NCBI GenBank assembly: GCA_965204375.1
Contig: OZ241986.1
Coordinates: 5,184,001 to 5,248,000 of the forward strand
Length of the DNA stretch: 64,000 bases
Origin: Candidatus Latescibacterota bacterium
GTDB taxonomy: Bacteria; Latescibacterota; UBA2968
Direction: 5' to 3'
Shown one piece after another: positions 29,781-51,801 of the stretch. A program made the translations under genes and the position numbers. The notes beneath the pieces are model-generated. The model searched no databases. It was not told the origin of the DNA and saw only the letters and a program-made list of their open reading frames with translations. Within the stretch, counting starts at the first letter, position 1, and each line of letters starts with the position of its first letter.

Positions 29781-29948
29781 TTAGCCTCCAATGAACGCTT
29801 TAGCGATTGACCACAATACCACAATAGCCATGATATGCGGTATGTGTATAATCAGCGCAAAAATTACGGCGAACACGAATATACACAACACCACTATATC
29901 TACCAATAAACGGACAATGAGATCTGCTGTGTTATTGGGCTCTTTCAT
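29781..29948 (-). CDS. Unannotated 55-aa hydrophobic (about 2 TM) small protein between two degenerate CRISPR repeats
   Basis: Hand translation: MKEPNNTADLIVRLLVDIVVLCIFVFAVIFALIIHIPHIMAIVVLWSIAKAFIGG*. The ATG directly follows the repeat end ATTGAAAC, with GAGG 9 nt upstream. Confidence 0.6.
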   Translation of the reverse strand: MKEPNNTADLIVRLLVDIVVLCIFVFAVIFALIIHIPHIMAIVVLWSIAKAFIGG

Positions 29949-29985
29949 GTTTCAATGCCTCAGTAGTCGGGTAATCCTTTCTGAC
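29949..29985 (-). repeat. Isolated degenerate full-length CRISPR repeat
   Basis: GTCAGAAAGGATTACCCGACTACTGAGGCATTGAAAC, 33/37 identical to the leader-distal repeat variant. Confidence 0.9.
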
Positions 29986-30001
29986 GAACGCCCTATTTAT
30001 C

Positions 30002-30017
30002 TGCAAGAAGCGTGCCA
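30002..30017 (-). promoter_or_regulatory. sigma54 (-24/-12) promoter P1
   Basis: TGGCACG-CTTC-TTGCA, exact consensus. Confidence 0.85.
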
Positions 30018-30124
30018 AAAAATAAAAAATCCTCAAAAAAATGAGGATTTTCTTTTTTTATTCTTTTTTCGCGGTTTTTTTTGTAAAAAAATCCCAAACA
30101 GGCATTCACCAGAGGGGAACAGAC

Positions 30125-30158
30125 GTGCAGAAATGCTCACATTTGTGCAAAAATGCAC
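30125..30158. promoter_or_regulatory. Paired palindromic enhancer-like sites for P1
   Basis: GTGCAGAAATGCTC and GTGCAAAAATGCAC. Confidence 0.7.
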
Positions 30159-30169
30159 GCCTATGCACA

Positions 30170-33100
30170 GTTTCAATACCCCAGTAGTCGGGTAATCCTT
30201 CCTGATTATCATCGACTCATACATCGCAGAGACCGCACCTTCAGGGTTTCAATACCCCAGTAGTCGGGTAATCCTTCCTGATAAACCAAAGCAGGATAAA
30301 AATGACGCCTGAAGATTTTAGTTTCAATACCCCAGTAGTCGGGTAATCCTTCCTGATGTGAGAAATTCCCTGTCAGAATTATTGATAGTTGTAAACCTAA
30401 TCGTTTCAATACCCCAGTAGTCGGGTAATCCTTCCTGATGACGACGGTTCAATGGAAGTCGATTCACCTTGCATGTTTTACAGTTTCAATACCCCAGTAG
30501 TCGGGTAATCCTTCCTGATGAATGGTCATATCAGTCATCGTAATACTTCCAATTTAGAAGTGTTTCAATACCCCAGTAGTCGGGTAATCCTTCCTGATTC
30601 AATTCACCAGAGACTTTAGGCTTATTTTACAAGATTCGTTCGTTTCAATACCCCAGTAGTCGGGTAATCCTTCCTGATCGTTGCAGAATTTGAGTTGGAA
30701 GTAGTGAAGGACATGTATGTTTCAATACCCCAGTAGTCGGGTAATCCTTCCTGATAGTTTTAGACCACGATTGGAAAGACCATCGCGTAAGACCAGTTTC
30801 AATACCCCAGTAGTCGGGTAATCCTTCCTGATCGGCACGAATTTGAGTGTCGTTGATTTGGGAAAGGAATTGTTTCAATACCCCAGTAGTCGGGTAATCC
30901 TTCCTGATCTTATGCTGCGATTAGGGCAATTCACGCTGGCCTTGATGATATGTTTCAATACCCCAGTAGTCGGGTAATCCTTCCTGATCAGATGCAAAAG
31001 CTCGCAGCAGCATACGCATTTGATCCGTTTCAATACCCCAGTAGTCGGGTAATCCTTCCTGATCACCAATTACAAAGGAGGTGTAAAATGGCAGTGATGA
31101 GGTTGGGTTTCAATACCCCAGTAGTCGGGTAATCCTTCCTGATCTGCCGAAACCATTGTTGGCTTGGGTTGCACGACGTTGCTGACGTTTCAATACCCCA
31201 GTAGTCGGGTAATCCTTCCTGATGAGGTTGCTATTCGTGTTGGGCAGCGGGTCAATGAGGAAATGTTTCAATACCCCAGTAGTCGGGTAATCCTTCCTGA
31301 TTGATCATTCAGGACTTACGATCAATACCACAGGATTTTTGTTTCAATACCCCAGTAGTCGGGTAATCCTTCCTGATGCAGGACGCAAAAGAAATTGAGT
31401 ACGCGTATCCCATATAGTTTCAATACCCCAGTAGTCGGGTAATCCTTCCTGATTGGCATGTGGTCTCCTTGTGCGGGAAATTTTGAGCAATCTGGTTTCA
31501 ATACCCCAGTAGTCGGGTAATCCTTCCTGATTTTGCAGTTCCGCATCTGCATTTTCCAACTCACATCAAGTTTCAATACCCCAGTAGTCGGGTAATCCTT
31601 CCTGATCAATTACCAATGAAAAGTAAATCAAAAGTAACATATGATAAGTTTCAATACCCCAGTAGTCGGGTAATCCTTCCTGATAATTGAAACTGTCATC
31701 CCGGCCGTGAAGAAGCGTAAGTAGTTTCAATACCCCAGTAGTCGGGTAATCCTTCCTGATTTGACCTTCCCGCCGAAGTGATTGACCTGTTTCGCGTTAT
31801 TGAAACGTTTCAATACCCCAGTAGTCGGGTAATCCTTCCTGATGACTCTCAGATGGCAACTATAGATCGGCTGTATGCTGGTTTCAATACCCCAGTAGTC
31901 GGGTAATCCTTCCTGATCTCAATCCGAATCGGACAGCTACTCGCACGCGCGAAAAAGATGTTTCAATACCCCAGTAGTCGGGTAATCCTTCCTGATATAC
32001 CTCCAGAACAACCGTGAGAATATCCTGCCGAAGTCCGCGTTTCAATACCCCAGTAGTCGGGTAATCCTTCCTGATATGGGAAGGTATTCACCTGATGATA
32101 TTGCGCGGGCAAGTTTCAATACCCCAGTAGTCGGGTAATCCTTCCTGATAAAATGAGCACAGCGTGCTGCTGACCATTCCGTTCACGTTTCAATACCCCA
32201 GTAGTCGGGTAATCCTTCCTGATATTGGCGTGAGGGCCGATGATCGCTGGGCGCCAAGCAGGTTTCAATACCCCAGTAGTCGGGTAATCCTTCCTGATAT
32301 TGCCGGTGGTGTAGCAGCTGGTGTTGGGGGTCTCGGGTTTCAATACCCCAGTAGTCGGGTAATCCTTCCTGATGAGGACAACTCGCCGGTTAATTGGGAC
32401 AAGGCAGATTGTTTCAATACCCCAGTAGTCGGGTAATCCTTCCTGATGGGGAAGGGGCAGACCAAGAACTTAACTGGTGGGAAGTTTCAATACCCCAGTA
32501 AGCGGGTAATCCCTCCTGATTTCGATGTTTTCCACACGTCGCTATGAGCATCATATCACCACGTTTCAATACCCCAGTAAGCGGGTAATCCTTCCTGATT
32601 ATTTTGATATGCAGATGTCACACGTCTATCTGTCTGAAGTTTCAATACCCCAGTAAGCGGGTAATCCCTCCTGATCAGGCATGCGCGCTGGCAAGGCATT
32701 GCTGGACGTGAAAGGTTTCAATACCCCAGTAAGCGGGTAATCCCTCCTGATTTATGGGTGCATTAGCGCAGAGTTTGATTGGGTAGATGATGTTTCAATA
32801 CCCCAGTAAGCGGGTAATCCCTCCTGATATGTAAAATCTTTCGGCGTAAGCGTTCGCGTAGAGGAGTTTCAATACCCCAGTAAGCGGGTAATCCCTCCTG
32901 ATTAGGAACGGAATCAAATTCAGCATAGGGCGCAGAACAATGACGTTTCAATACCCCAGTAAGCGGGTAATCCTTCCTGATAAGACAGCAAAACAAAGTA
33001 CGCTTGGGCCTTCTGCTATTAGTTTCAATACCCCAGTAAGCGGGTAATCCTTCCTGATCCGAACGGCTAAATTTAGCTTTCTATTTCTTCGTTTCGGTTT

Positions 33101-36260: not shown

Positions 36261-36265
36261 TCCGA

Positions 36266-39108: not shown

Positions 39109-40077
39109 TCAAACTCTGCTTGACCTGGGATAATGATATTCCGTGTTATCATTTGGATCCCATCGCCAGATGCGACGGAGCGCGTTAAGTGTTTTTGAGG
39201 CTGTGTTATTTCTAAACGATTGAGTCTGCTGTAATAGATAGGCTTCTAAACGCCTTCCTTCCACATGCTCTACCTCCTGATTGACTGTGTAACGACTGGC
39301 GTAGTCAATCAGCGTGAGTTTTGTGATTTCAAAGTGGACGCTACCCAGTCCCGCAGGTTTAGCGTAACCGAGTTTATGGCGCATATCCGGTTCGAGAACA
39401 AGTGCGTAGAGGAGCGTCTGCAATTCGACAGCTTCAAGATTTATAAACTGTGCTGAGAATGCGAATTGACTCTCCTTATTAATCGGCTTGATGTGTTGAT
39501 TAACTCGACTTTTTTGGTTTGTAGTCTGTATTCCAAGCGGTTGATGAAAGTAGAACTTTCGTCCTGCAATATGTCGCCTTTTGGGATCAAAGTAGAGTGC
39601 CCCCTGACCTGGTTTGGGGGCCATGAGCGCGATGGTATAAACTGCCCCATGCTCGTGTATCTTGACTTCAACGGCATCATTGAATGAGACCTTACCGAGT
39701 ATTGATCCTTGAATTGTTCCGAACATTCGACAACCGATGCACAACTTATCGGTGTTACATTTGTGGAAATCGCTTGGCAATTTATTGTTATATTTCTTAT
39801 CAAACAGCAGAAAACAGCCGTTGCCAATCGTTTCCACTAAGTTGCGGAAAAGCCCTTTGAGCGAACTTCCGGGGATAATGTGCTGCTTCTGTTCGTTCTG
39901 GATAAAAGGCTCTGCGCCCTGGTTCTTTTTCGGTGAGTGAAAAATGAAAACGGGTGTCTCTGCTGTAATTGTTCCTTCAATTTTTCCGGATACGCCACTG
40001 AATCTATCATGTGGCAAAGGGCGATCACGTTCAGGGGTGCTGTTCCAGTCAATCGGTACAAAATCATAAGGATTCAT
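39109..40077 (-). CDS. cas7: Type III-D RAMP, Cas7 group (terminal subunit)
   Basis: NPYDFV, IPGSSLKG, GRKFYFH, KLGYAKPAGLGS. Confidence 0.88.
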   Translation of the reverse strand: MNPYDFVPIDWNSTPERDRPLPHDRFSGVSGKIEGTITAETPVFIFHSPKKNQGAEPFIQNEQKQHIIPGSSLKGLFRNLVETIGNGCFLLFDKKYNNKLPSDFHKCNTDKLCIGCRMFGTIQGSILGKVSFNDAVEVKIHEHGAVYTIALMAPKPGQGALYFDPKRRHIAGRKFYFHQPLGIQTTNQKSRVNQHIKPINKESQFAFSAQFINLEAVELQTLLYALVLEPDMRHKLGYAKPAGLGSVHFEITKLTLIDYASRYTVNQEVEHVEGRRLEAYLLQQTQSFRNNTASKTLNALRRIWRWDPNDNTEYHYPRSSRV

Positions 40078-40628
40078 GAGACTTCCTCCAGATGTCGAAA
40101 GCGGTAAAATTCCAGCGCACCGGTTTCTAAATTCAGATAATGTCGCGCAGATAATTTTATGCGGGATTTGTTATTTTCACTTGAGACAGGATAATGCAGC
40201 AACCGCGGGATTTGTAATTCGAGAAATAAGTTTGTTGTCTCTGGCTGACCAATCAATTCAAGGGTATCTTCTGTCATCTTTTCACCCCAAAGATAGTAGC
40301 TATCATCCTGATGTTCAAAATCGGACAATGCCCTGGTAGCAAGCATTGGCAACTCTTTCGGTTCACCGATGTAAATGACCGTAAAAGTGCTGTCCTGCTT
40401 TTCCCATCGCAACTCAAAATCGTCGTGAAAGATGCGTCCCTGTTCCCATGCCTCAAAGTTTTCACTTGCGTCGTATTGCCGCAGACAGATTCCTTTTTCT
40501 CGCTCATCGTCAGACAAGAAAGTGCTCGGTACACGTTCAAGCATCATCAGTGACTTTGGGGGGCAGTCCAACGCTTGGACGATCGGAAGCAGATTTTCAG
40601 TTGTTCCCCAACAGATATTTTCTATCAT
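40074..40628 (-). CDS. csx19: Csx19-like type III-D subunit
   Basis: GRIF...ELRW, YYLWGE and C-terminal FYRF. Canonical position before the last cas7. Confidence 0.7.
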   Translation of the reverse strand: MIENICWGTTENLLPIVQALDCPPKSLMMLERVPSTFLSDDEREKGICLRQYDASENFEAWEQGRIFHDDFELRWEKQDSTFTVIYIGEPKELPMLATRALSDFEHQDDSYYLWGEKMTEDTLELIGQPETTNLFLELQIPRLLHYPVSSENNKSRIKLSARHYLNLETGALEFYRFRHLEEVS

Positions 40629-40630
40629 TT

Positions 40631-41665
40631 TCAGTCTCCGATACGTTGAAATTGCAGGTGTTCAAACTGCATCTTTTGAGGGATGCTCCACAACTTAATC
40701 TTATCAACAAATGATTGAACAGAGGCTTGTTTGAGGACATTGAGGCTATCATCCGAGAAAGTAGTGGTTTTGCGGATACCGTGTGTCTCCTCATTGGGTG
40801 GTGGTTGAATAGTCAATTGGTCATTCGTATCCGTACCATAAGAATTATCGCCCAGGAATTTTCCCAATCCCCACACATTCTCTGTGGGTTTTCCATTCAC
40901 TGCGCCGATGTAATTGACTGACACCTCAGAAATTTCACCCTTGACGTTTCCAAGTCCGCGTGACCTCCCAGAACCAATACGGATCAAGCCATCCTCCAAA
41001 TCTTGCACAATGAGCATTAGCATTCCGAGTTGCCATACCTCAAAGTTTCGCATGTAAATACCTGTTTCAAACGCGACACCGGACGAAACGACTTCCAAAT
41101 CGAATTTGGCTTGACCTGCTGCGCCACCAGTAAACCGATCAATGCCAACTCCATCGCGTTGCTCGGTTTTTTCTTGACTGTCTTCAGCAAGGTAGGCATC
41201 TGAGATGGCGACACGTCCAATGAACGAAGTAGAACCAAATAAGCGACATGCCGGACAAGAATCGCGATAGACATCTTTATTTAACAAATCTTCTTTTTTA
41301 CGCTGCCATTGGGCGTTGTTAATCCTCCATTGATCTCTTTGGCGCACCTCAAATTTATCGCCACACGAAACTTCAGTGTAATCGAGACAGACAAGCTGAT
41401 TTTGTTTTTTCTTTGGCTGTGTCTTGACAAATGGATTGCAAACGACACCATCTTTAAGTGTACGGATCACTTTTTCAATATGACTTCGAAAGACACCCTT
41501 CAGCGAACTCCCCGGTAGATAGACCTCTGTTTTACCATTGCGGTAAGTTCGGACAGGTGTCATATCTGGACCCGAAACAGTGCCATGTCCCGATTTGACA
41601 AGCACAGGGCCTTCAGTGTGAATTGTGAGATTGAAACGGCATTCATTAACAAGTCGCTTGAGCAT
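40631..41665 (-). CDS. cas7: Type III RAMP Csm3/Cas7 (Csx7-like)
   Basis: YLPGSSLKGVFRS, CRLFGS, RDGVGIDRFTG, IGSGRSRGLG. Confidence 0.9.
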   Translation of the reverse strand: MLKRLVNECRFNLTIHTEGPVLVKSGHGTVSGPDMTPVRTYRNGKTEVYLPGSSLKGVFRSHIEKVIRTLKDGVVCNPFVKTQPKKKQNQLVCLDYTEVSCGDKFEVRQRDQWRINNAQWQRKKEDLLNKDVYRDSCPACRLFGSTSFIGRVAISDAYLAEDSQEKTEQRDGVGIDRFTGGAAGQAKFDLEVVSSGVAFETGIYMRNFEVWQLGMLMLIVQDLEDGLIRIGSGRSRGLGNVKGEISEVSVNYIGAVNGKPTENVWGLGKFLGDNSYGTDTNDQLTIQPPPNEETHGIRKTTTFSDDSLNVLKQASVQSFVDKIKLWSIPQKMQFEHLQFQRIGD

Positions 41666-41676
41666 TTTCTCCTCCT

Positions 41677-42480
41677 TCACGCACTTTGTGAAAGTAGTGC
41701 TCCAATATGATTTTCTAGAAAACTATCCATATTATTAATTTTTTTCATTTTATCTTCGAGTGTTTTGCCGATCAGGTACTGGCGCAACCGATCATCTCTT
41801 GTCCCATCATCTGTTAAGTCCAATTCATAGCCGGCAAGATCAATGACCTGGCAGTTACCCAGTCCCCGTGAGCGCATGCCGCCGATTCCACCCATGCCGC
41901 TCGCAAACTCATTCAATCCCACGCAAGCCAAACACAGGTCGGTATCACTCGGACCCTCCAGGACGATTTCCATTTTGAATGTCGAACCAACAGAGACGAC
42001 TTCATAATCGTACTTCAACCCATCGACAGCTCGCTCACTATCTCGGTCAATCGCCACGCCATCGCGCACTTGTGTGGCTTCTGCCCATTCGTCAACGTAC
42101 AGGTCGGTAAAGAAAATTTTAGAAGCAGAAAACGGTGAGCCAAAGAGTTTGCATGTATCACATAGTTCTTCGTTAAGAATTTCTGCGAGTTTAGCTTCAC
42201 TCCAGTTACCAATCCTCCGACGGTTGTTGAAGTTTTCTTGATTGGCAGTTGGACAATCGCCTTCAGACAAAGAACAAGTGGTTCGATTTGGAATCACGCC
42301 AACCAATTTTTCAATAGTACTCCGAAACACACCTTTGAAACTGGAACCGGGTATAAAAGGCTCTCCTTCAGGTGTGAGAACAACAGGACTATCGGTGCCG
42401 CGTAGATTGATATTTCCACCGCCAATATGCATGGCGGATTTCAATTTCAATTTTCCAGTAAACACGTATTTCCTGCTCAT
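41677..42480 (-). CDS. cas7: Type III RAMP Csm3/Cas7 (Csx7-like)
   Basis: HIGGG, IPGSSFKG, CKLFGS, RDGVAIDR, GGMRSRGLG. Confidence 0.9.
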   Translation of the reverse strand: MSRKYVFTGKLKLKSAMHIGGGNINLRGTDSPVVLTPEGEPFIPGSSFKGVFRSTIEKLVGVIPNRTTCSLSEGDCPTANQENFNNRRRIGNWSEAKLAEILNEELCDTCKLFGSPFSASKIFFTDLYVDEWAEATQVRDGVAIDRDSERAVDGLKYDYEVVSVGSTFKMEIVLEGPSDTDLCLACVGLNEFASGMGGIGGMRSRGLGNCQVIDLAGYELDLTDDGTRDDRLRQYLIGKTLEDKMKKINNMDSFLENHIGALLSQSA

Positions 42481-42481
42481 T

Positions 42482-42910
42482 TCACGCATTTGATAGACTC
42501 CTTTGGTAGTTGTATTCAGCGATTAAATGTTGGATAAATTCCTTCGCCAAAAGATAGGCATACCGATCAATTTCTGCACTCACTTGCCGCTTTTGAGCAC
42601 GTCCCATTTCTTTGGGTTTTACGACAAGTTGAGTCTCCTCAACCTGTTTGGGCAGTCCGTTGAGGTAATCTTTCAGGTTTTGGTAAAATTTCTTCAATTC
42701 ATCGGGGGTTGTATTCCTATTGAGTCGATTATCAATGTAGCGGAAAATTTCACCCTGATCGCTTGCGCCGACAGCGTTCCAAAGACCGCTCAATTGGGAA
42801 TTTGAGATTTTTGAGTGGGCATGCTTTGCGACAAGATCAACGGCATCACAATAGAGTTTCCCATCACTCAACAGACGGATCTGTTGCGCCTGTCCAATTG
42901 TCACTGCCAT
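42482..42910 (-). CDS. Small alpha-helical subunit (Cas11-like) 2
   Basis: About 140 aa, helical, SQLSGL motif, inside the effector operon. Confidence 0.6.
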   Translation of the reverse strand: MAVTIGQAQQIRLLSDGKLYCDAVDLVAKHAHSKISNSQLSGLWNAVGASDQGEIFRYIDNRLNRNTTPDELKKFYQNLKDYLNGLPKQVEETQLVVKPKEMGRAQKRQVSAEIDRYAYLLAKEFIQHLIAEYNYQRSLSNA

Positions 42911-42911
42911 C

Positions 42912-43340
42912 TCATTTACCTCCAACTGTCACTTGATATTCGTAATGCACGACCAATTGACTCACAAATGCACGGATGAGGCTCAGATAGATGCGCTGTC
43001 CTTCAGATGTGTTTTCCTCGACACTTTCGAGTTTTCCACAAATCTCTCGTCGTCGGACGCGAAGACTTTGTTCAATATAGTCCTTCAAGCGCTCGCCAAA
43101 GTTATTCTTTCTCCAAGTTTGGTGCCTGTCATCCTTTGCAACCTGTTTCTTGATGTAATCAAGTACATCCGTTACCTTGAGCGTGGAATTTGCAATATTT
43201 TCGAGGTTTGTCATCTGGCTTCGGTGACGAGATTCAAATGCCTGTGAAGCGGCGTCTCCAAGTTCCTTTGCCCGATTATAAAAATCATCGCGATCAGTGA
43301 CCTGAGCAATTTCTTTAAGGATTTTCATTTGTTGGTTCAT
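42912..43340 (-). CDS. Small alpha-helical subunit (Cas11-like) 1
   Basis: SQMTNLENIA...YIKKQ...W...FG, inside the effector operon. Confidence 0.65.
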   Translation of the reverse strand: MNQQMKILKEIAQVTDRDDFYNRAKELGDAASQAFESRHRSQMTNLENIANSTLKVTDVLDYIKKQVAKDDRHQTWRKNNFGERLKDYIEQSLRVRRREICGKLESVEENTSEGQRIYLSLIRAFVSQLVVHYEYQVTVGGK

Positions 43341-44584
43341 AATTCGTTGACCTCCCTATGAAAGGCATCGGCAATCATAACTTGCCCAAAACCTTCTGAC
43401 CGGCGTTTGCCTATGCCCTTCTGTTCAATGTCGTAGAGTTTCTGATAAAAACGTTCATCAGGTGTTCCGTTATATCCAAACAGAAAAACAGAACCCATTG
43501 AAATCGCCCACTCTGCCGCTTTAGGCAATCCCAAAAGGGCGTTCCAGCCGATTACACGACGTTGGCCTGCGTTTTGGTAAATCAATGCTATATCCTCTAA
43601 ATCCCACATATCACGCAAGTAAGTCTGATCAAGAGCCATTTGATAACGCAACTGATGATCGAGAAGAATCGCATCAGATTGAAGCGTGATCGGAAAGTAG
43701 AATTCATGCGGCAAATCAACATCATATCTTTGCGCTTCAGTGTGAAACTTCTCACTAAATGCTCCAGCCCGCTTTTTTAAAGACTCCATAGCATCAGTCC
43801 TGAAAGCTTGGATTTGTGGAACGCCAAGTTTTCCCAATCCTCGCGTCAAGTTATTTCCTACTCTGAGTATCCCTTTATCCCCGACATCCTCTGCAAAATC
43901 GTAAAAATCATCATGTAGCGATTCATCAGCAAAGGATATAGTTCCCCAGAACGATTGTCCTTCATTAAGGACTTCACGATTATAGAGGATACCTTCTTGC
44001 ACGGTTCCTGTTTCTCGACTGATTCCCGTTCGGGTCAATAAACGAGTCTTTACTTCTGATTGACCAATTTCCGCAACATCCTCCCCACGACGGTAGAAGC
44101 CAGAAAACGTATCAAGCAACTCGCCACATCTTCCATGATTATCAGAGTAGGTGCAATTCTTATGTGGTTCGAGGATTTCAACCTTTATCTGCCCACTCAA
44201 TGCAAACAATCCCCAATAGATGAGGCTATCCATGACTCCGTGACGCTCTTTATCGCGTTCATTCGCCTTAAAACGGAAACCGCTGAATCGTTTACAAGAG
44301 CGAGCGGTCTTCGGTATCGGTTTTATTGGTTGCTCATTGTCTTGCAGATCAGTGTCTGAAAAATCATTAAAGTTTGCCGGATAGAGATTGCCAAAATGGA
44401 TCTCTCCAGAGAGGAAAAACTTTGCAAATTCATCTTTATCATCACGAGCTTTGCGATGCGCCGCCGCAAACGCCCCTAACAATGCGGTACCGGGAATGTA
44501 TTTGAGTGTATTAAAGCTTGCCGTTGAACGAGACACACGAAAGTTCAGCGGAGATTCCGATGAAACGATCAGTCTTGCTTTCAT
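43337..44584 (-). CDS. csx10: Csx10 (Cas5-group RAMP)
   Basis: YIPGTALLGA, VGNNLTRGLG, GSVFLF, GIGKRRSEGFG. Confidence 0.88.
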   Translation of the reverse strand: MKARLIVSSESPLNFRVSRSTASFNTLKYIPGTALLGAFAAAHRKARDDKDEFAKFFLSGEIHFGNLYPANFNDFSDTDLQDNEQPIKPIPKTARSCKRFSGFRFKANERDKERHGVMDSLIYWGLFALSGQIKVEILEPHKNCTYSDNHGRCGELLDTFSGFYRRGEDVAEIGQSEVKTRLLTRTGISRETGTVQEGILYNREVLNEGQSFWGTISFADESLHDDFYDFAEDVGDKGILRVGNNLTRGLGKLGVPQIQAFRTDAMESLKKRAGAFSEKFHTEAQRYDVDLPHEFYFPITLQSDAILLDHQLRYQMALDQTYLRDMWDLEDIALIYQNAGQRRVIGWNALLGLPKAAEWAISMGSVFLFGYNGTPDERFYQKLYDIEQKGIGKRRSEGFGQVMIADAFHREVNEL

Positions 44585-45315
44585 TCCGCATCCTCCTGTG
44601 CCATTTCATAGTATTCCAATTCACCCAGACTTTCCAATAACTTTGCAACTTCAATTGTTTTATCATTGATTGTCATTTTTTGTATTTTGCAATCATATTT
44701 GCCCATTCCCGTTGATTTGTTTGCGCCGATTCGGTCATTGGTACAAATGCCTGCAACCAATAACAGCAGCGAATAGCTCCATTCATTTTCGTCGATATGC
44801 AATCCTTCGAGATAGCCGTAAATTCGCCCTTCAAAGCAGAGTGTCTTGATGCCAAATTCGCTTTGGAATAGGGCTTGTTCACGCACAGTACCCAGAACTC
44901 GAGATATACTCGTTTGTGAGCGCTCCTCTGTCTGGAGGTGGATGTATCTCTTTGACTTTTGAGAATTATCAAAGAGATCTTGATCTTCTTTAGTCATTGT
45001 TGCATTGTCGAAATAGAGTTCGCCCGGTTTGTAGCGAGAGCCGAAGATTCTATCAACAATGTCGATAGTATTGCAGAAATCCGAAACCGCTTCTTGCTCA
45101 TCATGTGGACTGACAGCCCGGAGGCCAACCAGACGAGCGATCTGTTCACACCTCTCGCGCAATACACCTTTCAGCGTTGAGCCAGGAATATAGAGATGAT
45201 CGTGCGCATCTCTACTGACACTGCGGTCTAATAAATTTCGACGCAATCCAGTCCCAAAGTGGAAGGGCGTTTCAAACTGGATATAGTAATCAATGCTAAT
45301 AAAGTCTCGTCGCAT
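44581..45315 (-). CDS. cas7: Type III RAMP Csm3/Cas7
   Basis: FHFGTG, IPGSTLKGVLR, IFGS, IGANKSTGMG. Confidence 0.9.
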   Translation of the reverse strand: MRRDFISIDYYIQFETPFHFGTGLRRNLLDRSVSRDAHDHLYIPGSTLKGVLRERCEQIARLVGLRAVSPHDEQEAVSDFCNTIDIVDRIFGSRYKPGELYFDNATMTKEDQDLFDNSQKSKRYIHLQTEERSQTSISRVLGTVREQALFQSEFGIKTLCFEGRIYGYLEGLHIDENEWSYSLLLLVAGICTNDRIGANKSTGMGKYDCKIQKMTINDKTIEVAKLLESLGELEYYEMAQEDAE

Positions 45316-45332
45316 AAAAATTTACCTCACTC

Positions 45333-46868
45333 TTATTCGATAAAATCGTAAAGTTCAATGAGGTCCAAAAATGGGGTATAATAATCGTCACCCTCCTTGA
45401 ACCAAGGAAAACTGGGAATTTGCTGATTGGTAGTGAAATAGGTGGGAAAGTCCATAAATTTCTTCTTTCCTTTTTCTTCCTGGATGTGTCTCAGGAACGC
45501 CAAGCCTTCTAAAAGCGATAGATTTCGACTTTGAAAAATCGCATCTTGAAGTCCTTTTAGTTTTCCGCGTGGGAAATTTTCTCCTTTCAAGTAGCGAATA
45601 TTCTCAACGATATATCGCAGATCTGTCAAGCTATAGGGACGCAGTGTTCGATAGAGACTTTGGTCTTCATTGCTAAGCGTCTCGCTGTAGTAGGCGTCAA
45701 AATCGAGACTATTGGAATTACTCTCTACGATAAAGTTGATCAGACCTTCCTTTGCCTCCTCTTGTCCGCGTCTTTTGCGTTTCGTAGCTTCCATTTTCGC
45801 AAATTTCAACGCCTGTTCAGCCAACGTCAGTAAACTCGAAAATGGAAATGTTGTATGTGCGATAGCCACGCCAACTGATAATTTTAAAGGTCTGCCCAGG
45901 TCTGTGCTGGTGAGTTCGCTGAATTTTTCGGCGATTTGTATGGAAACTTCAATAGCTTTGTGTGCCGTTGTGACCATCACCAAATCATCGCCCCCAAGTA
46001 TCAGAATGTCGAATGGAAAATACTTTTCCTTGTCAGACGGTAGATATTCACAAATCGCCTCTCGCACCGCCTGATAGATAGCATCATCAACCATCTGAGA
46101 AAACTGTTTGACTTCGTCCAAATTGCTCAACTGATCCAGTTCCCTGCCCATACTATCCCCATCTGCATAGATGAGTCCCATGTAGTTCGTGGGCTTAGAC
46201 ATTTCGCCCAAATTATTAAAATCTTCGGGGCGGGTTTTACCTGCTATCTGATAACCTGCCCCTTTTAAGTCATATAGCAAGCGAGGCCAGAGTTTGTATT
46301 CCACATCTTCTTTGCTGTTCCCACTGATAAAGTCTTCAATATCTGCTCTAATTTCGTTATTCTTATCTCGTTTATTTTTGCAACTTCCGCAAAGCAATTC
46401 AAATTCAGGCTCTGTAACGCTTTGGTTTGCGTACTGTTCACCACAAGAATCGCAAGTTCTCAAAAATGGATGCGTCACAAGCGGTTGATTCAAGGTCTTT
46501 CCATCCTTTTTTAGACGGAGTCGATAGCCAAGTGTTCGAAGGTAAGGTTTAATATCATCTTGATTTGTGAAGTTATCAGGTAGGTCTGTTACAGCACTTG
46601 TGATAGACCCTGTGCGTGTCTTCAAATGATATTCCTGTTCTACGGCCTGAATCAGTGCCTCTGCGGAAGTTTCAGGTACAGTAAACATCCCAGAGCCACC
46701 ATTTGCGTAAATTTTCTTTGCATTGAAGTTCTGGCTCTTTTCGACCATATCCCGACGGTTCAATTCATCCAGAATCGCGCTTGCTCCTCGAATTTCTTTG
46801 AGCTTGTTAGTTGCGAAAATATATTCTTTGATACGGTCTGTATCAAACGAGACTAACTTTTGTCCCAT
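45333..46868 (-). CDS. cas10: Cas10, HD-less, with intact cyclase palm
   Basis: DTDRIKEYIF...IRGAS, C..C/C..C Zn motif, ADGDSMG, LGGDDL. No N-terminal HD domain. Confidence 0.93.
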   Translation of the reverse strand: MGQKLVSFDTDRIKEYIFATNKLKEIRGASAILDELNRRDMVEKSQNFNAKKIYANGGSGMFTVPETSAEALIQAVEQEYHLKTRTGSITSAVTDLPDNFTNQDDIKPYLRTLGYRLRLKKDGKTLNQPLVTHPFLRTCDSCGEQYANQSVTEPEFELLCGSCKNKRDKNNEIRADIEDFISGNSKEDVEYKLWPRLLYDLKGAGYQIAGKTRPEDFNNLGEMSKPTNYMGLIYADGDSMGRELDQLSNLDEVKQFSQMVDDAIYQAVREAICEYLPSDKEKYFPFDILILGGDDLVMVTTAHKAIEVSIQIAEKFSELTSTDLGRPLKLSVGVAIAHTTFPFSSLLTLAEQALKFAKMEATKRKRRGQEEAKEGLINFIVESNSNSLDFDAYYSETLSNEDQSLYRTLRPYSLTDLRYIVENIRYLKGENFPRGKLKGLQDAIFQSRNLSLLEGLAFLRHIQEEKGKKKFMDFPTYFTTNQQIPSFPWFKEGDDYYTPFLDLIELYDFIE

Positions 46869-46964: not shown

Positions 46965-47893
46965 GAAGCTGTTTTAAAACCCTGGCGTTTAAGCAAGTCT
47001 GTTAATTAAGAGATAAATCATACCGATGTGAATAAAGGCTTCACTGTTGTCCGTTAAGCGTTCATAATCCTTTGACAGTCGGCGGAAATTGAATAACCAA
47101 GCAAAGGTGCGTTCAATGACCCAACGGCGTTTGACTATTTGAAAGCCTTCCCCTTTTGGGGTAACGACCTCAAGATCAATCTTATGTGTTTGTTTTCTAT
47201 CAGCGACCCATTCCTTGAGGTCTTCGCCGCGATATCCGCCATCAACCCACAGCTTGCGTAAGCGTGTCACGCCTGTTTCAAAATACTGATTGAGCACCTT
47301 TTTGAGGCCATCACGATCTTGGAGATTAGCCGGTGAGACATAGGTGCTGATGACCAGTCCGAGGGTATCGACAAGCAGATGGCGTTTTCGTCCATTGATC
47401 TTCTTTCCCGCATCGTAACCCTTTGAGTCTGCTTGTGTTGCTGTCTTAACACTTTGGCTGTCAATACAGCCTGCTGATGCGTCAGGCTTGCGCCCTTGCC
47501 GTTTGCGCTCCCTACGTGAGAGTGCTTGTTGCACCTGCTGAAAGATGTCTTGCTCGCGCCATTTGTTGAAATAGCCATACACGGTTTGCCAACAGCCAAA
47601 GGTATGAGGCAGCATGCGCCATTGGCAGCCCGTCTTCGTCAGATACAGGATGCCATCAAACACGCGTCGCAAATTGGCAGGTGGACGTCCGGGACCTCCT
47701 TTTTGCCATTTGCGTTTGGGCAACAAGGGGATCAGCAGTTGCCATTGCGCTTGGGTGACATTTGTCGGATATTGTCTTGGCGTATTCATCGCATGTCCTT
47801 TCTTTTTAAGGTTTTTGGATACCCTAAATTTGGACTGATGAATACGCTTTTTCAACTCTTTTTTTTATTTCTCCATAATTTTAAAACAGCTTC
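46965..47893 (-). mobile_element. IS5 family (IS1031-like) insertion sequence
   Basis: 15-bp perfect terminal inverted repeats GAAGCTGTTTTAAAA and a 3-bp TCA direct repeat on both sides. Confidence 0.92.
46989..47789 (-). CDS. IS5 family transposase
   Basis: TGCQWRMLP, IDSQSVK, GRKRHLLVDTLG, VDGGY, RWVIERTFAWL. Confidence 0.95.
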   Translation of the reverse strand: MNTPRQYPTNVTQAQWQLLIPLLPKRKWQKGGPGRPPANLRRVFDGILYLTKTGCQWRMLPHTFGCWQTVYGYFNKWREQDIFQQVQQALSRRERKRQGRKPDASAGCIDSQSVKTATQADSKGYDAGKKINGRKRHLLVDTLGLVISTYVSPANLQDRDGLKKVLNQYFETGVTRLRKLWVDGGYRGEDLKEWVADRKQTHKIDLEVVTPKGEGFQIVKRRWVIERTFAWLFNFRRLSKDYERLTDNSEAFIHIGMIYLLINRLA

Positions 47894-47946: not shown

Positions 47947-48297
47947 TCAATCTCCAAACCACTCGGCTACTTTTTCTTTTGCATGGGCTTTAATCTCCGG
48001 CGTTACATGAGCCGCTACGGTTGCGAGAGCTGCGACCAGCACACCCAGATCATCGCCGTAGCCGACGGCGGGGGTCACGTCGGGAATCGCGTCAACTGGG
48101 AAGATGAAGTATCCCAGTGCCCCTTTGATGACTGTTTTGGCCCAGAGTGGCGTATCAGGAGCCTGCGCGGTGTAGTAGAGTGATAGGGCATTCTCTACGA
48201 CTTTCCGTCCCGCAGGGCTGGCGAAGTTGAGCAGTTTTTTCCAGAAGCTGTCCTGAGAGTAATATTTCCCATACCCCTGCTTGTTTCGATTGTTCAT
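47947..48297 (-). CDS. YkvA/DUF1232 family small membrane protein
   Basis: ALGYFIFPVDAIPD.TP.VGYGDD. GGAGG RBS. Confidence 0.88.
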   Translation of the reverse strand: MNNRNKQGYGKYYSQDSFWKKLLNFASPAGRKVVENALSLYYTAQAPDTPLWAKTVIKGALGYFIFPVDAIPDVTPAVGYGDDLGVLVAALATVAAHVTPEIKAHAKEKVAEWFGD

Positions 48298-48360: not shown

Positions 48361-48376
48361 TGCAATCCGCGTGCCA
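48361..48376 (-). promoter_or_regulatory. sigma54 promoter P2 (upstream of ykvA and the cas10 operon)
   Basis: TGGCACG-CGGA-TTGCA. Confidence 0.85.
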
Positions 48377-48474
48377 AAATGGAAGAAAATTTAAATTTAT
48401 TTTTTAATTTATATAAAAACAATATGTTATAAGAATCTTTTTATTTTTCAAACATGACGCTAATCTGTTCAAGC

Positions 48475-48509
48475 GTGCAATTCTGCACGTTTGCCGTGCA
48501 ATTTTGCAC
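48475..48509. promoter_or_regulatory. Paired palindromic enhancer-like sites for P2
   Basis: GTGCAATTCTGCAC and GTGCAATTTTGCAC. Confidence 0.72.
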
Positions 48510-48535
48510 TTATTCGACTATATGCTGCTCTTCTT

Positions 48536-49492
48536 TCACACTTCATCCTTCACACTTCTTCCTTTTATAGCGTATTGTCCCATCCCAAAGCTGGTCCACT
48601 TGCCCACATGCATTGGTACGCCCAGTGCCAGTAGTGGGTGGAATTGTGTCATGTCGCCTTCAAAGACGACATTTCCTGTGAAACCGCTCACGTTCATGCG
48701 TCGGTTCTTGCGGTTTGAATATCGCTCCCATGTGCGCCAGGTCAAGTTGTGGGATGTGGTTTGAACATTCTCTGCCGTTGAGATATAATCGGCATAATCC
48801 AAATCTGGCGGTCCATCTGCGTGAAATGCGGCCAATGCTGAATACCGCCGCAACAGTCCGCGTATGAGCACGGGGAAATCCAATCCGCGCTGCAATATCC
48901 GGTCTGCTTTGAGTTGTGTGGGGGTTACAAATGAGAGGCGAATCCGGGATCCGATTTTGTTGTGCATTAAATCGCTCGCTGCCAGATGTGGCACATCTTG
49001 TAACATCTCGCTCGTCCCGTCGTACACCGTCTGCCATGTTCCATCCGGGTGCAGAGCTTCGCCTGAAATGAGATCGCATTTGCCGCGTCCGCGTCCAATA
49101 CCTGTGTCTCCCATTCGCTGGAAGGTGTAGATGAAATAGGGCATGTAATTCAGTGCTCGGCCAATGAGGGTCAGACCAATCGCAAACTCGTCGTCCGGTG
49201 CGTAATCGGTTTTGGTTTCCAATGGCGGTTCGATCAAATAGGGATGGGGTGCCTCGCTGTACCCGCGAAAAATGCCTTGTGCATTCTCCACTGGCGTGTC
49301 AAATATGTATGGATACACGCATTGCGTCCGAACGAGACATCGCTCGCACTCGCCGTGTTGCACAATACAAACCGCACGCTTAAATGACACGCCAAAAGCC
49401 CCGCGAAATGTGGAGCCTTTATAGGGTGGCAGGCGCAGATTATCTCGTGCTTTGAAGTGCAGGCGCATATATGCGAATTCGAGTGTAAACAT
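48536..49492 (-). CDS. cas6: CRISPR processing endoribonuclease Cas6
   Basis: GSTFRGAFG, CxxC..C, PHPY, C-terminal G-loop HVGKWTSFGMG. Confidence 0.93.
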   Translation of the reverse strand: MFTLEFAYMRLHFKARDNLRLPPYKGSTFRGAFGVSFKRAVCIVQHGECERCLVRTQCVYPYIFDTPVENAQGIFRGYSEAPHPYLIEPPLETKTDYAPDDEFAIGLTLIGRALNYMPYFIYTFQRMGDTGIGRGRGKCDLISGEALHPDGTWQTVYDGTSEMLQDVPHLAASDLMHNKIGSRIRLSFVTPTQLKADRILQRGLDFPVLIRGLLRRYSALAAFHADGPPDLDYADYISTAENVQTTSHNLTWRTWERYSNRKNRRMNVSGFTGNVVFEGDMTQFHPLLALGVPMHVGKWTSFGMGQYAIKGRSVKDEV

Positions 49493-49793
49493 CCATATCT
49501 CCTTTGTATGATGGAACTATAAAACTCTAAGCCATCACGCACAGCGCGCTATTCCGTCAACCGCTGTCCTCCTTGTTTGCATTCAACTTTGAAGGCCACT
49601 ACATATCGTCTATCCACCTGAGCAATTTGCGCTGTGCCAGCCCCTCGGCGTTTGAGAGCGGCATTTTTTGCCTACTTTTTTTTGCTGGAGAAAAAAAGTA
49701 GGTCGCCGAAGGCATAAAAAGAAAAATCTTAAAAAAAGCTTAATACGTCGTTGTACCACAACACAAGAATTATGTGCACTCCTCAATTGTATA

Positions 49794-49809
49794 TGCAATC
49801 TGCGTGCCA
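49794..49809 (-). promoter_or_regulatory. sigma54 promoter P3 (upstream of cas6)
   Basis: TGGCACG-CAGA-TTGCA. Confidence 0.85.
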
Positions 49810-49908
49810 AACACAAAAAAATCTCCGATTTTTCCTCAGAGATCAAAAAAACAACGGGTTGTATGATATTTTTTTGAAACAGGAAATGGACAACAGTTAT
49901 GTTTAGCC

Positions 49909-50011
49909 GTGCAAATATACACACGTTTGTTATAAGAAAAAATTAAAAATAACTGCTATACCAACATATCGGGCCAATGTGCATTTTTGCACACCAGATG
50001 CAATTCTGCAC
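49909..50011. promoter_or_regulatory. Palindromic enhancer-like sites for P3
   Basis: GTGCAAATATACAC (49909), GTGCATTTTTGCAC (49979), ATGCAATTCTGCAC (49998). Confidence 0.7.
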
Positions 50012-50059
50012 GCCTTTCAATTCATATATTTGGGATTTTCGGTCCCTTTTCTCTGCAAA

Positions 50060-51736
50060 TCAAGTCAAGCCATATTCTTTGGCTCTTCTACTCAGCGTTG
50101 ACCGATCCATACGTAGCATCTTCGCGGCGTGTGCAATAACTCCCTGCGTTTGCTCCAGCGCGTCTTGAATGATCTTTTTCTCAAATTGCGCTACCTGCTC
50201 GTCGAACGAACCCTGAAAAATATCCGTATCCTCTTGATCAAATAACACATCGGGCGTAATCCATTGATCTTCTGGTGTCACAATAGCTGCCCGTTCAATA
50301 GCATTCTTTAACCCTCGGATATTGCGGGGCCAATCATAAGCCTGCAACGCACGCATAGCGTCCTCTGTAAAACCCGCAAATTCCTTTCCTTCATTCTCAG
50401 AAAAACTTTTCAAAAAGTGATGGGCAAGCAATGGAATATCTTCTCGTCTTTCCTTGAGTGGTGGCAACTCAATTTTTAAAGAAAAACGGCTTAGCAGATC
50501 GCCTCGAAACGCGCTTTCCTCTGTATTCAGGTTTTCATTGGTCGCGGCAATAAGGCGCACATTCACCGATATATCTGTCTCGCTGCCCATCCGTCGTATC
50601 ACACCGTCTTCCATGACTCGTAACAACATGCCCTGCACATCGGGTCGAAGCGAATTGATTTCATCGAGAAAGAGCGTGCCATTATTTGCTTGTTCAAACA
50701 AACCCTGACGCTGCTTGTTTGCGTTCGTAAATGCTCCCTTTTCATGACCAAACAATTGACTTTCCGCCAGATCTCCTAATCTCGCACAGTTTTCTGGGCG
50801 ATATTTTCCTGTTCGATCACTCGCTTTGTGCAGTGCAGAAGCAACCAGTTCTTTGCCAGATCCGGTGGAGCCTGTGATCAATACTGAATGACTATAAGGC
50901 GCATATAGTTTAATGTCCTTCTTAACATCCTGAATGCTGTCACTCTGACCAATAATTTCTGGAAACGCATCTTCTGCGCCCGATGCAATCCGCTCTATAT
51001 ACTGTTCTTGCATCTGCTTTGCGTAATCATTGACTGCCTGCTGTGTCAATCTCAGGGTGTCTTCAGTATATTGCCCGGGGGCTACAAATTGCACCACATC
51101 GCGCAATCGACAAAATGGCACGTCAGCCAATTCGATGCTCACAGTATCGCTCATGACTTTCTGGCCCCTGACGATTAGAGATTCCTCCTGTCCTGTACTG
51201 CGATTAAATACCATAATCGGTTCAGGCTTCTCTGGTGGATAATAATAGGACGCATCGCTTCGTTCAATCTCGGGCACGGAAACCAGAACGTGATAAAGCC
51301 GGTCTTGTGGCCGACCAAAAAAGTGAATGGCTGCCCCCAGTATAAAGCCCATAGATTTTCTTCCACCGGCAAGCGAGCAGTGCAATGCCACTTGATCATC
51401 CTGCGTCAGTGTCTCTATCAATTCAAAAATGCCGTCTCGCGCAATGCGATTCTCGTCAGAGGTGCGGATATCGTCTAAAAAGTTGCCCTTGGCGTCTTCG
51501 AATACGTGTATCTGATCGGTGTCGAAAACAGGCTTGGGATCGATATTGTAATCCGACAGCATCTTTTCAAAGCGGCCCTCGTCTAATAGGCGTTTCTGGC
51601 AGATTTCTTTGCCTACGGTTGTCGTTATCACAAATACTTCATTGATGGGCACCTTGCGCTGGACACGCAATGCCCAGAAGGTTTCTGTCATAACTTGTGG
51701 TGTGTTGCCGACTACAGCGACCAATTTGTGTTGCAT
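50060..51736 (-). CDS. CARF (NE0113/Csm6-like)-sigma54 AAA+ activator-Fis HTH fusion
   Basis: CARF: VVGNTPQVMTET, SLAGGRKSM, LYHVLVS. AAA+: GSTGSGKE, LFGHEKGAFTNA, LFLDEI, WPRNIRGL. HTH: AAKMLRMDRSTL. GAGG RBS before MQHK (alternative ATG at 51757). Confidence 0.92.
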   Translation of the reverse strand: MQHKLVAVVGNTPQVMTETFWALRVQRKVPINEVFVITTTVGKEICQKRLLDEGRFEKMLSDYNIDPKPVFDTDQIHVFEDAKGNFLDDIRTSDENRIARDGIFELIETLTQDDQVALHCSLAGGRKSMGFILGAAIHFFGRPQDRLYHVLVSVPEIERSDASYYYPPEKPEPIMVFNRSTGQEESLIVRGQKVMSDTVSIELADVPFCRLRDVVQFVAPGQYTEDTLRLTQQAVNDYAKQMQEQYIERIASGAEDAFPEIIGQSDSIQDVKKDIKLYAPYSHSVLITGSTGSGKELVASALHKASDRTGKYRPENCARLGDLAESQLFGHEKGAFTNANKQRQGLFEQANNGTLFLDEINSLRPDVQGMLLRVMEDGVIRRMGSETDISVNVRLIAATNENLNTEESAFRGDLLSRFSLKIELPPLKERREDIPLLAHHFLKSFSENEGKEFAGFTEDAMRALQAYDWPRNIRGLKNAIERAAIVTPEDQWITPDVLFDQEDTDIFQGSFDEQVAQFEKKIIQDALEQTQGVIAHAAKMLRMDRSTLSRRAKEYGLT

Positions 51737-51772
51737 ATCGTTATCCTCTTGAGACATCTCATTGACTTGTAT

Positions 51773-51801
51773 AGTATAACACAGTAATTTTGAAATATCA
51801 A
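51773..51801 (-). promoter_or_regulatory. Putative sigma70 promoter of the CARF-activator gene
   Basis: TTGATA-17 nt-TATACT with TG extension. Overlaps a divergent TTGACT-17-TAATTT. Confidence 0.55.

Follow-up and report, generated by a model that had tools for sequence, protein, structure and literature searches.

To our knowledge, cyclic oligoadenylate (cOA) signalling in type III CRISPR systems acts mostly by allosteric activation of enzymes and pores, and its known transcriptional outputs are Csa3 and the CalpL-CalpT-CalpS system. Here we describe a candidate for a further transcriptional output, a protein joining a CARF sensor of the Cas_NE0113 family to a sigma-54 activator and encoded within a type III CRISPR locus of a Candidatus Latescibacterota bacterium (GenBank assembly GCA_965204375.1, contig OZ241986.1). 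The window, as the whole stretch of DNA analysed is called below, comprises 64,000 nucleotides (nt) of the forward strand (positions 5,184,001 to 5,248,000 of the contig) and is part of a single-contig genome of 6.34 Mb; coordinates are those of the window unless stated otherwise. This locus holds a conserved and precisely mapped regulatory module, which we regard as real, and its biochemical link to cOA is plausible. The closest described relatives of the activator are Csa3 by function, RtcR by architecture and the stand-alone NE0113 proteins by sensor family.

Csa3 proteins are factors of archaeal type I-A and type III loci that combine a CARF domain with a winged helix-turn-helix (HTH). As CARF transcription factors located in a CRISPR locus, they are comparable to the window activator; they bind cyclic tetra-adenylate (cA4) and regulate CRISPR genes (PMC8699464, PMC8844856, PMC9704534), with control of both adaptation and interference genes being apparent from reference titles in PMC9704534. 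In contrast to the window activator, Csa3 binds DNA via its winged HTH and uses the ordinary transcription machinery, whereas an AAA+ ring and a Fis-type HTH_8 would act on sigma-54 from distant enhancers, an all-or-none mechanism of bacteria. RtcR shares with the window activator an N-terminal CARF-superfamily sensor, an NtrC-type AAA+ domain, a C-terminal HTH and an adjacent sigma-54 promoter (PMC4012209, PMC9650030). Yet RtcR-like proteins form a CARF family not typically found near cas genes (Makarova 2014, PMC4012209), and RtcR accompanies the rtcBA RNA-repair operon, whereas the window activator has a CARF of another family, misses the cut-off of the RtcR model NF038308 and lies beside cas genes, its neighbours being a DMFA-like/beta-lactamase gene and cas6, with no rtcB or rtcA adjoining. 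Stand-alone proteins of the Cas_NE0113/TIGR02584 family have the same type of CARF with the same invariant motifs, and, having no enzymatic effector domain, they were predicted to be transcription regulators (Makarova 2014, PMC4012209); the usual members (P0126-P0136) differ in their length of 360-420 amino acids (aa) and in their C-terminal part. Finally, CalpL-CalpT-CalpS also turns type III cOA into transcription via an alternative sigma factor, but its sensor is SAVED and not CARF, and a cA4-activated SAVED-Lon protease frees an extracytoplasmic function (ECF) sigma factor (PMC11229360). Proteolysis of an anti-sigma factor and an ECF factor of the sigma70 family thus stand there in place of an enhancer-binding ATPase and sigma-54. 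The searched literature, with passages of PMC4012209, PMC9704534, PMC12669027, PMC11229360 and PMC13462974, yielded no account of a sigma-54 activator that carries an NE0113 CARF and belongs to a CRISPR locus, although Makarova et al. 2020 or supplements may list the architecture; a 2024 survey of type III effectors left transcriptional regulators to future study (PMC11229360).

The activator gene and the promoter read in the sequence ahead of it are the following:

50060..51757, minus strand: enhancer-binding protein of 565 aa with CARF (Cas_NE0113), sigma-54 AAA+ and Fis HTH domains (a start at 51736 would give 558 aa)
51773..51801, minus strand: sigma70-like promoter (TTGATA-17-TATACT) ahead of the activator gene

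The original prediction had described this gene as a fusion of an NE0113-type CARF to a complete enhancer-binding AAA+ domain and a Fis HTH, and Pfam and motif reading agree on this architecture. Cas_NE0113 (PF09623) was matched at residues 19-222 (4.2e-34, 118.6 bits, cut-off 23) and Sigma54_activat (PF00158) at residues 268-426 (1.6e-51), followed by an AAA lid and by HTH_8 at residues 522-562 (4.1e-13); the motifs are GSTGSGKE (Walker A), FLDEI (Walker B) and GAFTNA (loop). As for the span, given as 50060-51736, the 50060 end stands and the other end lies at 51757, or at 51736 if translation starts at the second in-frame Met. The CARF is not of the RtcR type, in keeping with the prediction: TIGR02584 (NCBIfam) scored 174.4 bits against a cut-off of 80.65, whereas the RtcR equivalog NF038308 reached 249.4 bits against a cut-off of 650 and aligned to the AAA+ part only (residues 229-536). 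The Csa3 model TIGR01884 was not among the best 25 of the 36 families matched by the activator.

Structural comparison pointed in the same direction. An AlphaFold2 model covering residues 1-240 and derived from an alignment of 27 sequences (pLDDT 88, pTM 0.86) gave 44 Foldseek matches at E<=0.001, those listed being CARF proteins bar one sugar epimerase at rank 37. The nearest folds were the Crn1 cA4 ring nucleases Sis0455 and Sso2081 and the CARF domains of Cad1, Can2, Card1, Csm6 and Cam1, which bind cA4 or cyclic hexa-adenylate (cA6). A sequence search of PDB chains with the CARF domain was marginal (Sis0455, E 0.96 with the single sequence and 0.0026 by profile). Little or no variation is seen among the 27 sequences in two motifs, G-x-T-P-Q behind strand 1 and L-A-G-G-R-K behind strand 4, both of which are placed around the predicted ligand pocket (Makarova 2014, PMC4012209). 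From its family and modelled fold, the NE0113 CARF domain most likely binds cyclic oligoadenylate.

Candidate control elements for such an activator were mapped at three places of the locus, all genes of which are on the minus strand. Upstream activating sequences (UAS) are numbered after their promoters:

49794..49809, minus strand: P3, sigma-54 promoter (-24/-12) facing cas6, exact motif
48361-48376, minus strand: P2, sigma-54 promoter, exact motif
30002-30017, minus strand: P1, sigma-54 promoter, exact motif
49909..50011: UAS3, three palindromic dyads, of which 49998-50011 and 49979-49992 are spaced by 19 bp and the third is at 49909-49922
48475..48509: UAS2, two exact dyads 21 bp apart
30125..30158: UAS1, two dyads 20 bp apart, beginning 12 nt past the last intact CRISPR repeat
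49849-49861, minus strand: IHF-like box upstream of P3
48417-48429, minus strand: IHF-like box upstream of P2
49820-49844, minus strand: terminator-like hairpin directly upstream of P3
30024-30053, minus strand: terminator-like hairpin directly upstream of P1

The three promoters predicted on the cas-coding strand were confirmed: TGGCACG-N4-TTGCA occurs exactly three times in the window (30002, 48361 and 49794), always on the minus strand, and had no occurrence over 100 shuffles of the window. The dyad GTGCA-N4-TGCAC is found four times in exact form (30145, 48475, 48496 and 49979) against 0.07 expected, and eight times with at most one mismatch against 2.33 expected. Seven of these eight (30125, 30145, 48475, 48496, 49909, 49979 and 49998) sit 110-200 bp upstream of P1, P2 and P3, the eighth being located elsewhere in the window (4499). 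A pair of dyads had been claimed for each promoter, and a pair is indeed present at each, but the second member carries one mismatch at P1 and P3, and P3 has a third dyad. Likewise, the IHF-like boxes are found at 48417 and 49849 as predicted, but their motif, AAACAA-N4-TTR, is loose (five in the window against 1.5 expected). Upstream of the activator gene itself, a pattern search of the window returned neither a sigma-54 site nor a dyad.

Searches were extended to the whole genome, in which rpoN is present as anticipated (its DNA-binding domain scores 193.7 bits, within an open frame of 501 aa at C1:1692415), together with 19 strong Sigma54_activat matches comprising the CARF activator, the most divergent of them, and 18 others. 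The strict promoter pattern occurs 16 times in exact form, and TGGCAC-N5-TTGC 59 times. A dyad with at most one mismatch within 350 bp upstream was detected for three of these 59 sites, which are P1, P2 and P3, and for none of the other 56. With the same tolerance the genome contains 139 dyads, forming four pairs within 45 bp: three are spaced by 19-21 bp and correspond to UAS1-UAS3, while the fourth is an overlapping pair, 8 bp apart. These site and dyad counts indicate that sigma-54 is in wide use in this genome, with the enhancer motif being found only at the CRISPR locus.

Within the phylum, genome contigs were scanned with two patterns from the CARF N-terminus (residues 1-25), a search whose reach is Latescibacterota only; 14 of the 15 named loci were from Candidatus Latescibacterota and one from an uncultured Latescibacteria. 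Full-length activator homologues were identified in 7 of 20 other genomes of the genus and also in a second family of the same class, where three genera have them. Of 168 genomes of the phylum, 22, the window genome included, match the CARF part to some extent, a count that takes in unfused NE0113 proteins and 30-codon remnants. As the original prediction would have it for homologous loci, TGGCAC-N5-TTGC is found downstream of the activator gene, on the same strand, in all 12 assessable Latescibacterota loci, that is, those with a complete activator gene and readable downstream DNA (two further loci end at a contig edge), and the activator open reading frame (ORF) is intact in all 12. Two gene orders were recognised. 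The first, activator-[P3]-cas6-[P2]-DUF1232-interference, is that of the window and of the related genomes G015, G020, G018 and G008; G013 has cas6 behind P3, no DUF1232 gene being found there, and the contig of G012 stops directly past cas6. The second, cas6-activator-[P]-DUF1232-interference, is represented by G141, G101 and G146, and by G133, in which the DUF1232 gene was not found, while only cas6 and the activator start are visible in G122. Overall, 9 of 11 assessable Latescibacterota loci have a DUF1232 gene as the first one behind the promoter. P1, which separates the end of the array from the primase-cas1 genes, occurs in four of the five loci examined (window, G020, G016 and G018).

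The arrangement of the dyads is conserved as well. A total of 23 promoters was collected, 21 from Latescibacterota and one each from two metagenomic loci described below (L042 and L073); at least one dyad with at most one mismatch precedes 19 of them, and a phased pair 20. The dyads keep almost constant positions, at -112/-133 or at -113, -183 and -202. The UAS3 positions (-202, -183 and -113) are kept in G015, G020, G016 and G012, the UAS2 positions (-133 and -112) in G015, G020, G018 and G008, and UAS1 in G020, G016 and G018. The block formed by the IHF-like box and the hairpin before P3 is also kept in the aligned relatives. Around these elements, the activator, cas6, DUF1232, csx1-like, primase and cas1 products are 83-94% identical within the genus, whereas Cas10 is only 22-27% identical between loci and the interference genes are exchanged, which indicates that the promoters were retained across module swaps. 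The comparison of sequences thus suggests cassette swapping inside a fixed regulatory frame. The cassette lies between the DUF1232 gene and the csx1-like gene, and one version of it has a RAMP protein fused to a cold-shock domain. Activator alleles are themselves mosaic: the N-terminal ~100 residues are nearly identical across loci; behind them, the C-terminal half of the CARF and the AAA+ domain come together in two types and the HTH in five or more, variously recombined.

Beyond the phylum, metagenomes were scanned by CARF alignment and the best 80 NE0113 loci were taken, two of which (L042 and L073) carry the fusion to a sigma-54 AAA+ domain, their activators matching both Cas_NE0113 and the sigma-54 AAA+ family. 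In both, the sole sigma-54 site of the locus lies directly behind the activator gene, so that this adjacency is found in 14 of 14 assessable loci over three levels of G+C content (GC; 0.37, 0.51 and 0.70). L042 (GC 0.70) has a CARF 45% identical to that of the window activator, and its sigma-54 site, the only one in 20.7 kb, is 280 bp past the activator gene. One exact and one 1-mismatch GTGCA-N4-TGCAC dyad precede it, 21 bp apart, at -205 and -184; the dyad count alone is not significant in this locus (3 against 1.67 expected), the match being one of place and phasing. Downstream of the promoter are a DUF4258-like gene, cas6, an HD-bearing Cas10 and RAMP genes. In L073 (GC 0.37; CARF 39% identical to that of the window activator), a type III-A module comprising cas6, cas10, csm2, RAMP genes and a Cas_APE2256 CARF protein is found upstream of the activator gene, and the sigma-54 site, 90 bp past this gene, is preceded by a different 5-N4-5 palindrome. 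Ahead of this promoter, in its direction, are a small ORF, a DUF4258-like gene and, behind these, a type I-B set (cas8b-like, cas7, cas5, cas3, cas4 and cas1). Such a promoter, directed at type I-B genes with a type III-A module alongside, has a parallel in the cross-talk from type III to type I described for Csa3. A cyclase-type Cas10 is encoded in the locus in all three lineages (window, L042 and L073).

Two details of these loci may be added. The DUF4258-like protein (~111 aa) is encoded by the first sizeable gene past the promoter in both loci (L042:12074-12412 and L073:12104-12439), the two proteins being homologous (E 6e-13) and each below the Pfam cut-off. The small ORF before it in L073 is hydrophobic and 46 aa long.

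The breadth of the family was estimated in a library of 1.84 billion representative protein sequences. Among the best 150 matches examined, 12 align from the CARF N-terminus, starting no later than query residue 10, and reach query residue 497 or further, within or past the AAA+ domain; three further ones are fragments or N-terminally cut. All 10 members tested match both Cas_NE0113 and Sigma54_activat. The fusions fall into at least 13 clusters at 50% identity, including one N-terminally cut sequence, and these matches among the best 150 representatives suggest a small but diverse and recurrent family.

Taken together, the NE0113 CARF, the presence of rpoN, the unique architecture, its conservation and its recurrence in two lineages make the wiring from activator to promoters well founded, and it is very probable that the activator HTH binds the dyads and that sigma-54 is opened at P1-P3. 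Real sigma-54 promoters might nevertheless have their dyads bound by another enhancer-binding protein, for instance a stress- or nutrient-responsive one, with the CARF protein having other DNA targets or none. The 19 Sigma54_activat proteins of the genome provide candidates, HTH variants differ among activators while the dyads stay similar, and the half-site TGCAC is presumably akin to NtrC-type sites. A global regulator, however, would have no other targets here, as dyad pairs occur nowhere else in the genome; the activator gene adjoins a sigma-54 site in all 14 loci, across the three GC levels, and L042 has the same dyad beside its fusion gene. We therefore consider such a foreign regulator improbable. 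Still less credit is due to the view that the motifs have no regulatory function, being kept by recent kinship or left as relics of a decayed activator. In its favour, kinship among the Latescibacterota loci is close, the loop differs from the GAFTGA consensus, and an insertion sequence (IS) and other insertions mark a locus in flux. Against this, the -24/-12 elements and dyads remain fixed while the intervening sequence and neighbouring genes diverge or are swapped, as illustrated by Cas10, the architecture recurs independently in L042 and L073, and activators are preserved, with an intact ORF in the 12 Latescibacterota loci and both domains in L042 and L073.

From these elements a regulatory circuit can be proposed, in which the activator would be made from its own sigma70-type promoter and be dedicated to the CRISPR locus. 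Its Fis-type HTH would bind the tandem GTGCA-N4-TGCAC dyads ~110-200 bp upstream of P1, P2 and P3, the DNA would loop across an A/T-rich, IHF-like bend, and the AAA+ ring would hydrolyse ATP and open the sigma-54 holoenzyme at the three -24/-12 promoters. These would be insulated from read-through, because each is directly behind a terminator or a gene end. The putative transcripts would extend from P3 into cas6, from P2 into the genes for the DUF1232 membrane protein, type III-D interference and CARF proteins, and from P1 into the primase-like gene, cas1 and cas2; the P1 transcript should be cut by Cas6, since it would start ~10-15 nt ahead of a repeat. Upon encountering target RNA, the HD-less GGDD Cas10 would make cyclic oligoadenylate, which the NE0113-type CARF would bind, and ligand binding would release the AAA+ ring or promote its assembly. 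Target recognition would thereby raise the processing of CRISPR RNA (crRNA), interference capacity and spacer uptake. We give this whole chain, with cOA as the activating ligand, a probability of roughly 0.6.

Several observations weigh against this chain or parts of it. On the side of the promoters, P1 is missing from G015, and P2 from G016, which otherwise has the first gene order. The canonical dyad is absent at the one-mismatch level from P3 of G008, P3 of G013 and L073. Variant dyads are seen instead at P3 of G008 and G013 (GTGCA-N4-TGCCT and AGGCA-N4-TGCCT), and CTGCA-type ones in G146. The HTH differ among activator alleles while the dyad core stays similar, so that covariation between HTH and dyad is weak. 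The genome encodes the 18 other strong sigma-54 AAA+ proteins mentioned above, and the Latescibacterota loci are kin, leaving only two independent lineages. On the side of the protein, the sigma-54-contact loop is non-canonical, GAFTNA instead of GAFTGA; it reads NAFTNA, NAFTGA, GAFTGA and GAFTDA in four relatives with the same type of AAA+ domain, while alleles of the second type have GAYTGQ, GTYTGQ or GAYSGQ. The F/Y-T core is retained, and several more distant fusion members have the canonical GAFTGA.

The interference genes raise a further difficulty. The original prediction had P2 driving the interference operon, and P2 does head the DUF1232 gene, but cas10 would be reached only by read-through of an IS element, which in the window genome lies between P2/DUF1232 and cas10. 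At this junction no IS is found in G015 and G016, and G018 has a different short insertion. Depth in the DNA run X2 is several-fold higher over the IS region, which indicates that the element is multi-copy. In G016, P3 alone precedes the genes from cas6 to the RAMPs, and the intergenic gaps between cas6 and cas10 measure ~20-75 bp. A strict positive-feedback loop with an absolute need for cOA would therefore leave G016 with no Cas10 to produce it, a start-up problem that could be met by basal activity of the activator, by a second, weak Cas10-like gene located elsewhere in the genome or by an inverse logic.

We also infer two further steps, the identity of the ligand as cOA and its effect as activation and not repression, and TIGR02584 is named a ring nuclease by NCBIfam, so that the CARF domain might degrade cOA and not only sense it. 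The same wiring could follow another logic, the ligand-free activator driving P1-P3 for housekeeping expression and cOA or ring-nuclease action turning it off or tuning it, as negative feedback or a timer; in a variant of this scheme, the CARF would sense RNA ends or a partner protein, as suggested for RtcR, instead of the cOA made by Cas10. Under such a logic the start-up problem of G016 vanishes, and the family label is matched by the ring nucleases Sis0455 and Sso2081 among the nearest folds. Sigma-54 promoters, on the other hand, normally serve genes that are tightly off or on, a cyclase-type Cas10 accompanies the activator in all three lineages, and the nearest folds are cA4/cA6-binding domains. 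Although the CARF of RtcR is controlled by the RtcAB proteins and tRNA fragments and not by cOA (PMC9650030, PMC7790460), the CARF considered here is of the NE0113 type, the RtcR model covering the AAA+ part only. All in all, activation by cOA is retained as the preferred interpretation, and the alternative logic appears rather unlikely.

An RNA library, X1, was not used as support. It held 0.15 of the sampled words, and its contigs are 88-98% alike and thus stem from relatives; they cover only cas6, the leader, the gene of the activator and a portion of the IS region. Such contigs cannot show transcript starts, and DNA may be present in the library.

Sigma-54 promoters are essentially silent without their activator, which suits costly or toxic genes. 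If the proposed circuit is true, a CARF-gated sigma-54 activator would be a third and mechanistically distinct route from cOA to transcription, and crRNA processing, interference and adaptation would be inducible by infection. More tentatively, as one possibility among others, type III signalling may possess a transcriptional arm of its own that depends on enhancers, with an otherwise silent regulon that infection switches on for processing, interference and spacer acquisition, and in one lineage for a type I-B system; as part of the same picture, the DUF1232 and DUF4258-like proteins encoded by the first genes could be transcriptionally induced effectors, unlike the known enzymes with allosteric activation. 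A literature search for DUF1232 with CRISPR returned one unrelated preprint only. The system is compact, with one protein, one 14-bp dyad and one promoter type, its parts are mapped to the base, and it could be rebuilt in any rpoN+ laboratory host. Through it, the control of type III expression, the feeding of adaptation by interference and the role of NE0113-family CARF proteins become testable, and a cOA-responsive genetic switch is a possible use.

Along the direction of transcription, the locus begins with the activator, P3, cas6, P2, the DUF1232/YkvA gene, an IS4/5 transposase gene and the HD-less Cas10, continues with five RAMP genes, Csx10-like, Csx19, two CARF proteins, the leader, the array, P1 and two degenerate repeats, and ends with a TPR + AEP-TOTE primase-like gene, cas1 and cas2. 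Its remaining features are:

48536..49492, minus strand: cas6, 318 aa (Pfam CRISPR_Cas6 2.8e-19; 88-92% identity across the genus)
47947..48297, minus strand: DUF1232/YkvA-family small membrane protein, first gene behind P2 (Pfam 2.2e-12)
46989..47855, minus strand: IS4/5-family transposase gene between the DUF1232 gene and cas10 (Pfam DDE_Tnp_1, DUF4096)
39109..46868, minus strand: type III-D interference genes, the whole block including two small ORFs
45333-46868, minus strand: Cas10, HD-less, 511 aa (Cas10 palm2 1.6e-21 by Pfam, GGDD)
44581-45315, 41677-42489, 40631-41680 and 39109-40077, minus strand: RAMP genes
43337-44584, minus strand: Csx10-like (TIGR02674 4.6e-49, 167.6 bits, just below the cut-off of 177.3)
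40074-40628, minus strand: Csx19 (TIGR03984 51.2 bits, cut-off 35)
37479-39050, minus strand: CARF protein, 523 aa, with a C-terminal Csx14/Crn1-like domain
36266-37408, minus strand: CARF protein, 380 aa, Cas_APE2256
~35961-36265 (leader) and 30170-35960 (CRISPR array), minus strand: ~76 repeats of 37 nt, the repeat ending in ATTGAAAC
29751..29985, minus strand: two degenerate repeats, 29949-29985 and 29751-29777, around a variable insert
29781-29948, minus strand: 55-aa ORF within the variable insert (sole Pfam match below cut-off)
26383..29742, minus strand: adaptation module (88-94% identity in relatives)
29714-29742, minus strand: sigma70-like promoter of the adaptation module
27686-29611, minus strand: TPR + AEP-TOTE primase-like protein, overlapping the cas1 start and conserved with cas1
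26683-27699, minus strand: cas1
26383-26679, minus strand: cas2

By its Cas10 and its Csx10-like and Csx19 signature genes, the interference set is classified by sequence as type III-D; a RAMP model, TIGR03986, was also matched in this block (195.4 bits, cut-off 161.35). Cas10 keeps GGDD and lacks HD, as predicted: Pfam detected no HD domain, and the protein begins directly at the palm region. We take the TPR + AEP-TOTE protein to be akin to the CRISPR-associated primase-polymerases of type III adaptation modules.

The distance from P3 to the cas6 start (49493-49793 in the window) is ~300 nt in the window and G012, ~200 nt in G020, G008 and G013, and only ~60 nt in G015, G016 and G018. The extra DNA holds a long A/T hairpin, for which Rfam had no match; across the whole window, Rfam gave zero matches at gathering score. 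At the other end of the locus, P1 was considered as a second CRISPR leader, with a repeat within ~15 nt, but this was rejected, similarity of the P1 region to the main leader being weak. A small membrane protein had also been predicted behind P1, and this part of the prediction was not supported: the stretch between the degenerate repeats differs in all four genomes compared (window, G020, G016 and G018), and the 55-aa ORF, considered as a candidate induced toxin or membrane protein, was dismissed as a conserved part. The insert is absent from G016, is a single spacer of 39 nt in G018 and holds the ORF of 168 nt in the window, and a ~150-nt hairpin-rich element is common to G020 and G015 in the region of the degenerate repeats. 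The array contains two repeat variants that differ in mid-repeat, with a changeover near 32480. One variant makes up the leader-side block and is shared by the terminal degenerate repeat, the other makes up the block beside P1.

The genome has five cas1 genes, four of which are listed at C1:177697, 3941423, 5280998 and 6335069, and a second, weak Cas10-palm match at C1:3934652, near one cas1. No sigma-54 site with dyads was found near the other cas1 or Cas10-like loci of the genome. With five cas1 genes and this second Cas10-palm match, several CRISPR loci could cross-talk.

A copy of the initial 30 codons of the activator gene lies at a distance of 11 kb, at 62768-62857 (minus strand), where it is joined to a DMFA-like gene, namely to its upstream region and 5' end, and the same DMFA 5' sequence (36010-36130) makes up the array 'leader'. 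A 15.5-kb joint in X2 (36104 to 51668) was considered as a deletion variant and rejected, the paralogous scar at 62.7 kb explaining the joint. Remnants of 30 activator codons are also present in G010, G005, G002 and G012, the first three of which have no full-length activator gene. From their sequence context, these remnants look like the scar of a whole CRISPR island that was lost or gained via recombination between DMFA paralogues.

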